Below are positions 16,052 through 19,037 of a stretch of 64,000 bases of DNA, one piece after another; the stretch's first letter is position 1; every line of letters begins with the position of its first letter. Under the pieces are notes generated by a model. The model was not told where the DNA came from and did not search any database. It saw only the letters and a list, made by a program, of their open reading frames with translations. The position numbers and the translations under genes were made by a program. This DNA is from Candidatus Uhrbacteria bacterium (GTDB lineage Bacteria; Patescibacteriota; Patescibacteriia; JACRJV01). The stretch spans positions 3,728 to 67,727 of the forward strand of contig JACRJV010000007.1 in the NCBI GenBank assembly GCA_016215325.1, in the 5' to 3' direction.

Positions 16052-16504
16052 AAAGATACGATGATCAATGAACCATTGTCATTATATATTAGCATAACCT
16101 TTTCTAGAGTACAACTTTTTTACCGATTTACTAAACTTCGTATGGTGAAGAGTTGTCGATACAAAAAGCCGCCCTTGTGAGGCGGCTTTCGCTTGCCCCG
16201 CAGCGATTGCTCAGGGCGAAGTTGACTCAAGAAACGTGATAGCAATGACGTCACCCGATCATTTGATCGGGTCATTCGTTGGTGGAGTACTGCCGCCCTC
16301 AATGCGCGCTGAAAGAGTACAGCAGTATTCCACCAACAAATGTCGACTTGGACTTTCGTCCAAATTACTCCCTAGAAAGGAGGTGATCCATCCACAGCTT
16401 CCGCTACGGATGCCTTGTTACGACTTCGTCCCTGTCACCAATCCTACCTTCTGACGGTTGTCCGCCATTCGGGTATTATCGGCTCCCTTGACGTGACGGG
16501 CGGT

Positions 16505-17239
16505 ATTACGATCACAACAATCTTATGATTGTTGTGTCACTGATCACCACTGGGCAAACGGCTTTCCCGTACCCTAGCGGTTCCCAAATATCGTTATTGT
16601 TTTCTTCCCGTTCCTCCGCGCCATCTCGCGCAACGCCAGAATTTTTGAATATCCGGTGTCGCTCAGATGTTCTTTCTTCGCGATGATTTCCACCACGCGT
16701 CGAAAGATGTTGAAGGATTGCTGTTTTTTCGACTGAAGAGGGTGTTGTGCCTTCTCCGTCAACAAAACCCACAACATAGTGTGGCGGTAACGGTCGGAAA
16801 TGATAATTTGGTTTCACTCCTTCCCCAGAAAAACTTCTGAGTACTATGAGATCTGCTGACTTCTTGTACTTCATAAGAATGCTTGTTTCCAAACACTCCG
16901 CCATCACCTCGTGATTAATTCATCACGATGTAGTATACCACAATTTGATGATGGAAGGTACAAGATCTCCCTGGGTCACGAACAAGAATAATTGTCTCTA
17001 TCGGGATCCTAATCACATACAGCATTTTGTGTTCGAATAATTTCCCCCTGTACGCGCGGGGTCATCCAAACTGTATGCCACCATTGATTCACGCTAAAGA
17101 CTGCGTCCGAACTCTCGTCAGAGCCCTCGCGGGCACTGGCGTGTTCTTTGCTTCAAGTCTTTCGAACGAGACTTGGTCGGATTTCCTGCCTGCCGACAGG
17201 CAGGTCACCAACATTCGTTGTCCGCTACCAGGCGGTCCG
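16505..17239 (-). mobile_element. Intron/IVS inside the 16S rRNA gene, inserted between the GUACAC and ACCGCCCGUC segments near E. coli position ~1397
   Basis: The boundaries are unambiguous by alignment to the universal 16S sequence. The intron begins GGACCGCCUGG and ends ...CGUAAU, so it shows neither the group I terminal G nor the group II GUGYG. Its class cannot be determined by eye. Confidence 0.8.
16512..16907 (-). pseudogene. Degenerate LAGLIDADG homing-endonuclease ORF inside the 16S intron, probably frameshifted
   Basis: The 131-aa ORF contains ...HYVVGFVDGEG, a LAGLIDADG motif, but then turns low-complexity. An overlapping ORF in a second frame (16574..16777) carries the endonuclease-like continuation ...SFNIFRRVVEIIAKKEHLSDTGYSKILALRE... 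Confidence 0.5.
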
Positions 17240-19037
17240 TGTACAAAACCCGAGAACGTATTCACCGCGGCGAGGCTGATCCGCGATTACTAGCGATTCC
17301 TGCTTCATGAGGGCGAGTTGCAGCCCTCAATCTGAACTGGGGGGTGATTTGATGGGATTAGCTCCAGCTTGCGCTTTGGCGGCCCATTGTAGCACCCCAT
17401 TGTAGCACGTGTGTCGCCCAGGACGTAAGAGCCATGCTGATTTGACGTCATCCCCACCTTCCTCCCCCTTGAGGGGGGCAGTCTCGCCAGACACTTGTAA
17501 CTGGCAATAGGGGTTGCGCTCGTTTCCAGACTTAACTGTACACCTTACGGCACGAGCTGACGACAACCATGCAGCACCTGTGATGCACCCTCGAAGGTCA
17601 CACGTTTCCGTGCGCTTGCAGCATCATGTCAAGCCCTGGTAAGGTTCCTCGCTTATTGTCGAATTGAACCACATGCTCCACCGCTTGTGCGGGTTCCCGT
17701 CAATTCCTTTGAGTTTTAGCCTTGCGGCCGTACTCCCCAGGCGGGATACTTAAGGGGTTACCTTTGATAAACGACACTGGGAGGGTCGATACTCCCAATG
17801 TCTAGTATCCATCGTTTACGGCGTGGATTACGCGGGTATCTAATCCGCTTCACTCCCCACGCTTTCGTCTCTCAGCGTCAGATCCGTCCTAGTATGCTGC
17901 TTTCGCCTTTGGTGTTCCTGCCGATATTAACGCATTTTACTACTACACCGACAGTTCCGCATACCTCTTCCGGCCTCAATCCTGACCATCTCTCCCGCAG
18001 CGCCGAAGTTAAGCTTCAGCATTTAACAGAAGATGCATCAGGACGCCTACAGACGCTTTACGCCCAATAAATCCGGATAACGCTTGAACCACTCGTATTA
18101 CCGCGGCTGCTGGCACGAGTTTAGCAGGTCCTTATTCCCACCATACCGTCAGAAATCGGGGATCGGATATCGGAAATCGAAACGGAGGAATCCGACTTCT
18201 GATCTCTGAACCCCGACCTCTTCTTCTGGTGGAAAAGCAGTTTACACTCCGAAGAGCTTCATCCTGCACGCGGCGTCGCTCCCTCAGACTTTCGTCCATT
18301 GGGGAAGATTCTTGACTGCAGCCTCCCGTAGGAGTCGGGCCAGTATTTCAGTGCCCGTGAGGCGGGTCGTGCTCTCACACCCGCTACCCGTCGTCGCCTT
18401 GGTGGGCTTTTACCCCGCCAACTAGCTGATAGGCCATAGGCCCCTCTCCGAGCGGATTGCTCCGTTACTCCAAAACTCTTGCGAGAATGGAGACCATTGG
18501 GAATTAGCGTCTCTTTCGAAACGTTATGCCCATCTCGAAGGTAGGTTACCAATGTGTTACTCACCCGTTTGCCACTCTGCGCGCTCCGCGCTGAAATATC
18601 GATATATCGAAATATCGAAATGTCAGTGCGAAGCACGCAGCGTTCGACTTGCATGCCTTAGACACGCCGCCAGCGTTCATCCTGAACCAGGATCAAATTC
18701 TCAAGAAGATTGAATGTTGATTGCTCAACGGTTCAATATACTGTTCCTAAGAACAGATTTGGTTGCTTAGTTATTTTGTTGAATTGACGTATTGCTATCA
18801 CGTTTCTTGTTTCAACCTTACATTGTTGTCTACCCAATTTTCAATGTACGATCCCTTGAGAGAGAAAAAAATACACCCGCCCATGTGCTTCCAGCGCATC
18901 CGTAAATCCACACATAGACTGGCTGTAGAATGTTTCCGTATTGTTGGCCGTTTGGGCCATCCCCAAGGGGCAACGGGTAGTATGACGGAAACAAAAGCCG
19001 GTGTCAAGAGCAAGTCTGAGATGCAAATACATCTCCG

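Follow-up and report, generated by a model that had tools for sequence, protein, structure and literature searches.

A group IIC-like intron with a largely deleted LAGLIDADG endonuclease gene interrupts the decoding region of a bacterial 16S rRNA gene

The stretch of DNA analysed here (64,000 nucleotides, in the following called the window) contains a 16S rRNA gene with an insert which, judged from its sequence, is a group II intron of the IIC-like lineage and of the self-splicing type. We assume, at a probability of roughly 85%, that this IIC-like intron at C1397/A1398 (E. coli numbering) still splices and that the gene of its endonuclease has been deleted. Homology, domain structure, covariation, insertion site and the deletion of the open reading frame (ORF) are directly supported by the data presented below.

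Results

The 16S rRNA gene and the insertion site

The bacterial 16S rRNA gene extends on the minus strand from 18708 to 16376 and is interrupted by the insert at 17238..16505:

17239..18708, minus strand: 16S rRNA exon 1 (E. coli ~1-1397); Rfam RF00177, 1278.7 bits, E. coli rrs numbering
16505..17238, minus strand: group II (IIC-like) intron, 734 nt, 5' GGACCGCC...GAUCGUAAU 3'; sequence, family HMM and same-site homologues
16376..16504, minus strand: 16S rRNA exon 2 (E. coli 1398 to 3' end); RF00177, 95.2 bits

The bacterial SSU model of Rfam spans 18708..17225, and its score of 1278.7 bits compares with 1150-1340 bits for the full-length 16S genes of relatives. Exon 2 (16504..16376), searched alone in a cmscan of 16350..16530, was recovered with RF00177 (95.2 bits), the alignment running from ...ACCGCCCGUCA up to model position 1533. 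At the borders, exon 1 reads ...TTGTACAC (last base 17239), the insert GGACCGCC...GATCGTAAT and exon 2 ACCGCCCGTCAC (from 16504). Exon 2 starts with ACCGCCCGUCAC and finishes with GAUCACCUCCUUU. A sliding of the boundaries is impossible because the first and last bases of the intron (G and T) are unlike the adjoining exon bases; the length of 734 nt was read from the sequence with these boundaries. In the annotated 16S gene of E. coli, which was the source of the numbering, TTGTACACACCGCCCGTCA occupies positions 1390-1408, and the split point therefore lies between C1397 and A1398. Once joined, the two exon halves (together 1,599 nt) restore the canonical 16S sequence, with a predicted ligated junction formed by ...UUGUACAC at the end of exon 1 and ACCGCCCGUCAC at the start of exon 2.

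The preliminary description of this DNA had proposed that an intervening sequence splits the 16S gene near the decoding centre, at about E. coli position 1397, and had suggested aligning the exon halves to a 16S reference. Both halves align to RF00177; these matches and the border sequence bear out the split, and the annotated E. coli 16S gene bears out the site. The 3' border at 16504 was also correctly placed there. The insert comprises 734 instead of 735 nt, the other border, given as 17240, was one base off, and the last base of the gene is 16376, not 16377.

The insertion site is located within the universally conserved, single-stranded decoding strand (1392-1407), and the ribosomes of the organism therefore depend on the precise removal of the intron. 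Exon 1 shares ~71% identity with the 16S rRNA of E. coli; the host is thus not a gammaproteobacterium. An Rfam scan of the window found no 23S rRNA gene adjoining the 16S gene. The intron divides the primer site at 1392-1406 and makes the gene longer, with consequences for surveys of full-length 16S. The earlier statement that the organism is invisible to standard 16S primer pairs was overstated: primers across 1392-1406 are indeed split, but the 515F site is intact and the 806R and 1492R sites show 1-2 mismatches when the primers are compared with the sequence of the window.

Identification of the insert as a group II intron

The first three domains of the intron were located by comparison with Rfam and with the family of same-site introns:

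16901..17238, minus strand: domain I; full-length alignment to the family
16817..16900, minus strand: domain II, J2/3 linker (AAGAAGUCAGCAGA) and domain III; RF01998

RF01998 (group-II-D1D4-1, domains II-III) matched with its full model (1-84) at 16900..16817 and scored 57.5 bits at a cut-off of 35 bits, with an E-value of 1e-7 for the whole window. A family HMM made without the window matched 17195..16818 (domains I-III) with an E-value of 4e-39; the same HMM also finds group II introns of the reverse transcriptase (RT) type, with E-values of 1e-9 to 2e-5. By E-value, an Rfam scan of 16300..17400 yielded RF01998 plus noise and nothing else. RF00029 (Intron_gpII, domains V-VI) had no match in this interval at E-values up to 10 and was also absent from 20 relatives scanned; this model misses the family because of family-wide insertions of 1 nt and 3 nt in domain V. 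The resemblance to IIC introns consists in the likeness to an RT-type intron located after a terminator-like hairpin and in the short ribozyme (~450-500 nt in ORF-less relatives). As marks of the IIC backbone, PMC13190283 lists the lack of EBS2/IBS2 and of domain IC2 together with a characteristic ID and characteristic linkers. The ORF list holds no RT-like ORF in the insert. The intron's 3' end (AU) agrees with the AY rule; the 5' end (GGACC) is non-canonical when compared with the GUGYG consensus. The 5' ends of the relatives read GGGUC, GGGUG, GAGUU or UGGCG, and GUGUC was present in L061 alone among the matches listed.

These results contradict the earlier view that the ends of the insert fit neither group I nor group II introns: the RF01998 match of 57.5 bits, domains V and VI, the EBS1-IBS1 pairing and the 3' terminal AU all speak for group II. 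Of the scans that had been proposed, those with RF00028 and RF00029 gave no match in 16300..17400 at E-values up to 10; it is RF01998 that matches. A group I intron or an archaeal bulge-helix-bulge intron with a LAGLIDADG gene is practically out of the question. Group I introns are the usual home of LAGLIDADG genes, and true group I introns are present elsewhere in the rRNA genes of relatives L006, L009, L015 and L037, as indicated by RF00028 matches; the insert itself, however, has no RF00028 match at E-values up to 10, and its domains II-III, V and VI and its EBS1 speak positively for group II, by which the group I reading is already contradicted. Any archaeal-type intron family of Rfam fell within the scan of 16300..17400, which returned only RF01998 and noise.

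A family of introns at the same site

At least 94 metagenome contigs carry a homologous intron at exactly this site of the 16S gene and one genome MAG adds another same-site homologue, so that the family has at least 95 members; ~26 of the 120 metagenome matches listed fell by chance in GC-rich coding DNA and were set aside. Genome contigs were scanned with a pattern consisting of the 5' exon, 365-395 nt and CAGCAGANNNCATAGTA. Seven loci were found: L006, the single 16S intron among them, and six others that were either RT-type group II introns or matches by chance; the exact domain III string CAGCAGANNNCATAGTA is absent from most relatives. The matches listed include 47 complete introns: 38 have an ORF (864-1058 nt), seven are ORF-less (452-521 nt) and two are partly deleted (733-734 nt). 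In most full-length relatives among the matches listed, domain IV holds a single-motif LAGLIDADG_1 gene that is intact. RF01998 matched 19 of 20 relatives tested, and one relative also matched RF02001. The existence of ORF-less copies suggests that the RNA needs no cis-encoded protein.

rRNA genes are hard to assemble from metagenomes, and an assembly chimera, in which a fragment of a mobile element was joined into the 16S gene, had been named in the preliminary description as a finding that would overturn its proposal. Such a chimera is very unlikely, to the point of being negligible, because homologous inserts sit at exactly this site in other contigs: the element, with an EBS1 that matches the exon, is present in at least 95 of them from many samples, and the exon halves join into a canonical 16S sequence.

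Domain I and the pairing of the intron with the 5' exon

In domains I-III, 87% of 85 consensus pairs that had been derived without the window are kept, within the family range of 80-100%. Of 105 columns conserved to at least 90%, 19 differ in the window, which is one of the three most divergent of 41 family members in these domains; its divergent domain I is a feature specific to the window. L063 and L075 are equally divergent in domains I-III and have intact ORFs. A partial loss of ribozyme efficiency is conceivable from this pattern. Two elements of the 5' splice site were recognised:

17049..17055, minus strand: EBS1 loop GCGUACA; pairs with IBS1, covariation in the family
17245..17239, minus strand: IBS1 UGUACAC, the last 7 bases of exon 1; pairs with the EBS1 loop

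Across 25 distinct family members, the 7 bp of EBS1-IBS1 are paired in 98.9% of cells and two positions covary: A or U at exon position -2 is matched by U or A in the loop, and U or C at exon position -5 by A or G. This covariation sets the 5' splice site at the point given by the 16S alignment. In the window, six of the seven pairs are formed and one A·C mismatch is present, with C17054 opposite A17240 (E. coli A1396, exon position -2); this is the sole non-pair at that position among the 25 distinct members. At 16S position 1396, where A is near-universal, most hosts of the family appear to carry U.

The pairing also bears on the possibility that the insert is cut out by RNase III-type processing without ligation, or stays in place as an expansion segment. 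For some intervening sequences of bacterial rRNA, removal without religation is known, a precedent cited in PMC11270868. We nevertheless consider this quite improbable. The catalytic elements of group II introns and the pairing of the intron loop with the 5' exon are under selection, and simple excision is disfavoured because such a pairing would serve no purpose there. Moreover, the site is located inside the conserved single-stranded 1392-1407 strand, and the ends of the insert form no long stem, domains I and VI being folded locally.

Domains IV-VI and the remnants of the endonuclease gene

The 3' part of the intron comprises the following features:

16584..16811, minus strand: domain IV; basal stem of CCAAAUUAUC (16811..16802) with GAUAUUUGG (16592..16584)
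16749..16796, minus strand: LAGLIDADG gene, N-terminal remnant RPLPPHYVVGFVDGEG, frame A; BLASTP against L084
16574..16744, minus strand: LAGLIDADG gene, C-terminal remnant HPLQSKKQQSFNIFRRVVEIIAKKEHLSDTGYSKILALREMARRNGKKTITIFGNR*, frame B; BLASTP against L084 and ORF list
16546..16581, minus strand: domain V; minimum free energy fold identical to the proposed structure, family covariation
16508..16540, minus strand: domain VI; fold with a 10-bp upper stem and the 3' tail AAU after it

The basal stem of domain IV, which was read off the sequence on the model of relatives with and without an ORF, encloses the remnants of the endonuclease gene. Domains III and V are separated by 233-234 nt in the window, compared with 22-47 nt in ORF-less and 447-495 nt in ORF-bearing relatives. 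The window retains the first ~16 and the last ~56 codons of the LAGLIDADG gene in two frames. The frame A remnant matched residues 1-29 of the intact LAGLIDADG_1 endonuclease of a related intron, L084, in BLASTP (E 1e-8), and its motif is present at the same location in the relatives. Frame B reads HPLQSKK...KEHLSDTGYSKILALREMARRNGKK...GNR* (16744..16574) and its remnant is 62% identical to residues 96-145 of L084 (E 7e-22); its UAG stop codon (16576..16574) falls within domain V. The deletion measures ~230 nt; relative to L084, ~79 central residues are gone, so that the alpha-beta-beta-alpha-beta-beta-alpha core, which in a functional enzyme comes after the LAGLIDADG helix, is incomplete. Pfam (PF00961, LAGLIDADG_1) gave no match for either ORF (E-value limit 10) or for the joined remnants (E-value limit 1), and the homology of the remnants is therefore demonstrable only by comparison with intact relatives, which themselves match LAGLIDADG_1 with E-values of 1e-21 and 1e-22. 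A frame of 131 codons that is open through domains IV-VI is regarded as a chance frame: it has no family match, and it reads domain V in another frame than the endonuclease does.

The two endonuclease-like frames that had been noticed in the preliminary description are thus real, as judged by the BLASTP matches to L084. Its reading of a frameshifted and decaying gene stands as far as the decay and the two frames are concerned, but a single, frame-shifting deletion of ~230 nt took place instead of a simple frameshift.

A typical domain V is a hairpin of ~34 nt with an AGC or CGC triad. Here the CGC triad (16579..16577) includes a G·U pair, and two bases (UU) bulge out of the 3' strand; the domain deviates by an extra bulged A at 16575 and by a GAAAG pentaloop. 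Its 14 pairs are formed in 100% of cells over 19 distinct family sequences, with compensatory changes in five of the 14; slid controls were paired to 25-58%. The domain aligns with that of RF00029-positive RT-type introns, from which it differs by the insertions of 1 nt and 3 nt. In domain VI, A16512 bulges out at a distance of 8 nt to the 3' splice site, in keeping with the 7-8 nt expected of group II introns, and is a candidate branch point; a single bulged A at -8 is present in 52 of the 83 distinct domain VI sequences of the family among the matches listed. The linker between domains V and VI (GAUCA, 16545..16541) is 4-5 nt longer than in the relatives.

Some of these features could be taken as signs of a dead relic, whose ribozyme has decayed together with the endonuclease gene, so that the 16S gene would be a pseudogene or the removal of the intron would need host or trans-acting factors. 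The A·C mismatch as the sole non-pair at exon position -2 among 25 distinct members, the lengthened V-VI linker, the 19 of 105 altered conserved columns in domains I-III and the lack of an adjoining 23S gene point in this direction, as does the deletion of the endonuclease gene, such proteins being sometimes maturases according to PMC11270868. A relic is nevertheless rather unlikely: domain V is perfect, the branch A of domain VI and the basal stem of domain IV are kept, the 87% of retained consensus pairs lie inside the family range, and L063 and L075 are equally divergent yet have intact ORFs. The exons, in addition, score as a full 16S gene (1278.7 bits vs 1150-1340 bits in relatives), and ORF-less relatives exist.

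Discussion

A possible route of splicing and spread

Our preferred reading remains that of an intron that presumably still splices, and does so without a protein. It would be transcribed within the pre-16S rRNA and fold into a six-domain ribozyme, in which the EBS1 loop holds the last seven bases of the exon. Either domain VI's bulged A or water would then attack the 5' splice site, and ligation of the exons would restore the decoding-centre strand ...GUACAC-ACCGCCCGUCAC.... In the relatives, the single-motif LAGLIDADG enzyme presumably cuts intron-less 16S alleles and thereby spreads the intron via DNA homing. Since the deletion of ~230 nt took the catalytic core of the endonuclease, the copy in the window would be immobile, a splicing-only passenger at a late stage of the life cycle of a homing endonuclease. 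It may thus illustrate clearly how, late in the homing cycle, the endonuclease gene is lost while the ribozyme persists. A minor possibility is that the copy represents an evolutionary intermediate that is losing its autonomy, given that it lacks an endonuclease or maturase, has the A·C mismatch in EBS1-IBS1 and the lengthened V-VI linker and is divergent in domain I; in that case a 16S rRNA that the cell cannot do without would rely on a ribozyme of reduced strength, on hydrolysis or on a factor of the host. The family would then be a large group II lineage that has so far been annotated poorly. For the family as a whole, the data add testable structure in the form of the EBS1-IBS1 covariation, the variant domain V and the branch-site A.

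Comparison with known systems

The earlier statement that such insertions are typical of CPR-type lineages agrees with the ~71% identity to E. coli 16S and with the literature, where this type of insertion is assigned mainly to CPR (PMC11270868). The intron matches, compared by description, the group-II-like '16IS9' insertions of CPR bacteria (Tsurumaki 2024, PMC11270868). According to that survey, these are located at ~1400 of the 16S gene, mostly encode LAGLIDADG_1, lack an endonuclease in 14 of 53 cases and were first noted by Brown et al. 2015. Gene and site are the same, recognition came via an Rfam group II model only, there is no reverse transcriptase, the LAGLIDADG_1 gene (here in the relatives of the window) has a single domain, and the host 16S rRNA is far from that of E. 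coli (~71% for the window). The accessible portion of the survey identifies the class mainly via the Rfam match and does not describe details of domains V and VI or of EBS1. Compared with the insertions so described, the copy in the window differs by an endonuclease reduced to two short, out-of-frame remnants and by the mismatch in EBS1.

Introns of the 'rns-1396' type were reportedly found in Thiomargarita by Salman et al. in 2012. By description, the intron probably belongs to this 'rns-1396' IIC-LHE family (Salman 2012; Liu 2026, PMC13190283), the group IIC-LHE introns of Thiotrichaceae (Thiomargarita), which have been reported only from four gammaproteobacterial genera (PMC13190283). Both occupy the same short stretch of 16S, the backbone is of the IIC type there and IIC-like here, and a single-motif LAGLIDADG gene lies in domain IV of that family and of the relatives of the window's intron; 'rns-1396' introns are reported with IBS1 and IBS3 and no EBS2, and degenerate ORFs occur in that family. 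The host of the window, in contrast, is not gammaproteobacterial by 16S identity.

The intron O.i.I1 of Oceanobacillus iheyensis is an example of a classical RT-encoding group IIC intron. With RT-encoding IIC introns, such as that of Neobacillus driksii (L003) after a terminator-like hairpin, the intron shares the blocks 5' GNGNGCCYGG, GGGAGAUCU, AAGAAGUCAGCAGA..CAUAGUA..GAAGG and, in domain V, GAACCGC...GUGGUG. RF01998 matches both, and the family profile finds the RT-encoding introns with E-values of 1e-9 to 2e-5. The window copy differs in having no reverse transcriptase, a 5' end other than GUGYG, a 7-bp EBS1-IBS1 pairing within an rRNA gene, where the RT-encoding introns have a short IBS1 that follows a terminator, and a domain V with an extra bulged A and a pentaloop, for which reason it is missed by RF00029.

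In mitochondrial LHE group II introns (PMC4424553), a homing endonuclease likewise replaces the reverse transcriptase, rRNA genes are also the location, 5' ends are commonly altered and ORFs commonly degenerate; these introns differ by IIB1 backbones and mostly double-motif enzymes. The intron described here reveals no new kind of element and is another member of the kind known from the rRNA genes of CPR bacteria and, probably, of the one known from giant sulfur bacteria.

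The 16S rRNA gene and its intervening sequence

The split 16S rRNA gene of the preliminary description is borne out. The gene is bacterial and lies on the minus strand: exon 1 is recognised by RF00177, and in the minus-strand reading the universal 16S sequence ...GGGUUUUGUACAC ends at 17239 while ACCGCCCGUCACGUCAAGG... picks up at 16504. Both exon halves were compared with 16S as had been proposed; exon 2, searched alone with the SSU model, aligned up to the last position of the model (terminal sequence GAUCACCUCCUUU). Since TTGTACACACCGCCCGTCA represents positions 1390-1408 of the annotated E. 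coli rrs gene, the break lies between C1397 and A1398. The terminal intron bases are unlike the adjoining exon bases, and the boundaries are therefore fixed, with no sliding. An insert near ~1397 had been correctly seen, and its length is 734 nt instead of the 735 bp first assigned, the 5' side having been off by one base. The features are (all minus strand):

18708..17225: 16S rRNA gene, RF00177 match (Rfam, 1278.7 bits)
17238..16505: insert, 734 nt
17195..16818: match to the domains I-III profile
17055..17049: EBS1 loop, GCGUACA
16900..16817: complete RF01998 match
16811..16802 with 16592..16584: domain IV basal stem, read from the sequence
16796..16749: N-terminal endonuclease remnant, RPLPPHYVVGFVDGEG
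16744..16574: C-terminal endonuclease remnant, HPLQSKK...GNR*
16581..16546: domain V-like hairpin
16540..16508: domain VI-like hairpin
16504..16376: exon 2

Exon 1 also contains two extra hairpins in the V1 and V3 regions (18585..18645 and 18150..18232, minus strand), both with many UUUCGAUAU-like repeats. Their folds are stable (-20.3 and -34.6 kcal/mol; z-scores of -2.7 and -4.8), and they resemble extended helices, not introns.

Assignment to group II introns

The ends of the insert had been held to fit neither group I nor group II termini. The insert itself is homologous to group II introns. In the Rfam scan proposed earlier, neither a group I model nor RF00029 (domains V-VI) matched the insert region at E up to 10; the group II model RF01998 (group-II-D1D4-1: domain II, J2/3 linker, domain III) was matched completely, scoring 57.5 bits (cut-off 35; E 1e-7 when the whole window is searched). 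Towards its 3' end the insert has domain V- and VI-like hairpins, for both of which folding of the single sequence gives the proposed structure, and an EBS1-IBS1 interaction is present.

Relatives were collected by two scans. A search of one genome per species, combining the 5' exon with a domain III motif at a given spacing, yielded a single true relative, a 940-nt insert at the same 16S site of a MAG contig (L006); the other six matches were RT-type group II introns or chance. A metagenome scan for AACCGC-N20-30-GTGGT-N25-55-ACCGCCCGTCA, i.e. both strands of domain V, a gap of domain VI size and then exon 2, matched at least 120 loci. Of the 120 matches listed, 94 carry the same domains V and VI ahead of exon 2; the remaining ones are chance matches in GC-rich coding DNA. 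With the window and L006 added to the matches listed, 47 introns have both their ends, with lengths of 452-521 nt (7), 733-734 nt (2, the window and L061) and 864-1058 nt (38). RF01998 was matched by 19 of 20 tested relatives, one of which also matched RF02001, and RF00029 by none of the 20.

The domain V alignment (41 columns, 19 distinct sequences, gapless) has the following architecture:

Lower part: 6-bp helix with the CGC triad, the G of which pairs with U
Middle: invariant bulged A, then 4 further bp
3' strand: 2-nt bulge
Top: 4 bp capped by a pentaloop, GAAAR

The 14 proposed pairs are formed in 100% of cells, with compensatory changes in 5 pairs; sliding the 3' partner by 1-3 columns lowered pairing to 25-58%. 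The RT-type introns L003 and L007, which are RF00029-positive, have the same hairpin, to which the family adds one base (the bulged A) and a loop region larger by 3 bases. These additions explain why RF00029 misses the family. In domain VI of the window intron, the bulged A at 16512 lies beneath a 10-bp stem, at a distance of 8 nt from the 3' splice site. Folding predicts one bulged A, at -8, for 52 of 83 distinct family sequences among the matches listed. The 3' end AU is in line with the AY rule, as in most relatives, and the V-VI linker GAUCA exceeds that of relatives by 4-5 nt.

A profile HMM of domains I-III, made from 40 relatives with the window left out, matches the window intron (E 4e-39) and also the RT-type group II introns L005 (E 1e-9), L003 (2e-5) and L007 (3e-4). 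The window departs from 19 of 105 columns conserved at ≥90%, the third-worst value of 41; L063 and L075, near it in this ranking, both have intact ORFs. Of 85 consensus base pairs derived from the relatives alone, it retains 87% (family range 80-100%). Judged from these comparisons, we read the window intron as a ribozyme that has diverged and is still structurally constrained.

Recognition of the 5' exon

In the domain I alignment, a loop G-N-G-U-R-C-A is complementary to the last seven exon bases:

Exon end ACUC: loop GAGUACA
Exon end ACAC: loop GUGUACA
Exon with GCAC replacing GUAC: loop ...GUGCA

In a count over 25 distinct pairs, pairing holds in 98.9% of cells, and at two positions exon and loop have both changed. 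The pairing is EBS1-IBS1 of group II introns, and it places the 5' splice site independently, in agreement with the 16S alignment. In the window, C17054 stands opposite A17240 (A1396), the sole non-pair at that position among the 25 pairs. Among the matches listed, the 5' end GUGYG is absent across the family save for GUGUC in L061; the window has GGACC. Taken together, the data establish that the element is a homologue of group II introns at a fixed rRNA site that has lost its endonuclease, and that its catalytic and exon-binding elements are under purifying and compensatory selection. The earlier observation was confirmed and its interpretation right in part.

In 38 of the 47 complete introns counted above (e.g. 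L009, L010, L014), exon 1 ends with ...UUGUACUC, so that mature 16S would have U in place of A1396 (E. coli numbering); EBS1 of these introns has the A to pair with it. In the window and 8 others, the exon has the usual A.

The endonuclease gene

ORF-bearing relatives encode ...L-N/D-P-x-Y-V/I-x-G-F-I/V-D-G-E-G-S/C-F...GKK...GNR* in domain IV, and the ORFs of two match Pfam LAGLIDADG_1 (E 1.5e-21 and 1.3e-22). A Pfam search left the window's remnants unrecognised. Compared with L084, a relative with an intact endonuclease, the N-terminal remnant matches residues 1-29 (E 1e-8) and the C-terminal one, in another frame, residues 96-145 (62% identity, E 7e-22). A decayed LAGLIDADG gene in two frames had been proposed and these matches support it, yet frameshift alone is not the cause: the domain III-to-V distance of 233-234 nt, versus 464 nt in L084 and 447 nt in L006, indicates a single internal deletion of ~230 nt. 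This points to a probable loss of the beta-sheet core together with a shift of frame. L061 has a similar, independent internal deletion; like the window, it has kept both ends of the gene, in its case the last ~69 codons along with the GFIDG motif.

In the window (16574..16576) as in relatives (e.g. L006 2117..2119), the ORF terminates within domain V: the codons AAC CGC UAG at its end form the 5', catalytic-triad strand, and the stop codon contains the family-specific bulged A. The window intron still has the basal stem of domain IV. Domain V and the stem of domain IV may constrain the ORF ends that survive.

Proposed mechanism

We infer that the insert is spliced out of pre-16S rRNA via the group II pathway, with plausible branching at A16512, and that the intron is presumably no longer able to home. 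That ORF-less relatives exist suggests an intron RNA that can dispense with a protein of its own. Its efficiency may be reduced, in view of the divergence of domain I, the lengthened V-VI linker and the A·C mismatch.

Genomic surroundings

The 1-kb spacer between the 16S 3' end and tRNA-Ile(GAU) is occupied by a 230-codon ORF (15359..16051, minus strand) with an HTH_23 N-terminus (homeodomain-like, transposase-type; Pfam E 4e-6). After 16S and tRNA-Ile, the remainder of the window (positions 1..15294) contains no 23S rRNA gene, and the rRNA genes therefore appear unlinked. Protein-coding ORFs take its place, including one with an RNase_H_2 / 3'-5' exonuclease domain (14274..15026); a single ORF of 3,228 codons spans 2691..12377 (minus strand).

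RF00028 group I introns occur on the same rRNA contig in L006 (2254..2660), L009 (416..1172), L015 (4141..4872) and L037 (2226..2466, inside the 16S span). That of L006 starts just after ...AAGUCGUAA near the 16S 3' end and is followed by a LAGLIDADG-like ORF. A further RF00028 match in L006 (4942..5267, 73.3 bits) adjoins a tRNA gene and brings to mind the group I introns that have been reported from tRNA genes of Patescibacteria (PMC13011429).

Comparison with known introns

Zimmerly and Semper 2015 (PMC4424553) reviewed group II introns of the LAGLIDADG type and alterations of the 5' end. Liu et al. 2026 (PMC13190283) describe 'rns-1396', a family of bacterial IIC introns whose domain IV carries a single-motif endonuclease; its known hosts, following Salman et al. 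2012, are Thiotrichaceae. The 16S of the window's host is ~71% identical to that of E. coli, and the host is thus not a gammaproteobacterium. For CPR 16S, Tsurumaki et al. 2024 (PMC11270868) give 53 group-II-like insertions, predominantly near position 1400 ('16IS9'), 39 with LAGLIDADG endonucleases and none with a reverse transcriptase. With the '16IS9' class as characterised there, the window's element agrees in all features tested; this kind of element is already known, and the window intron is an additional example.
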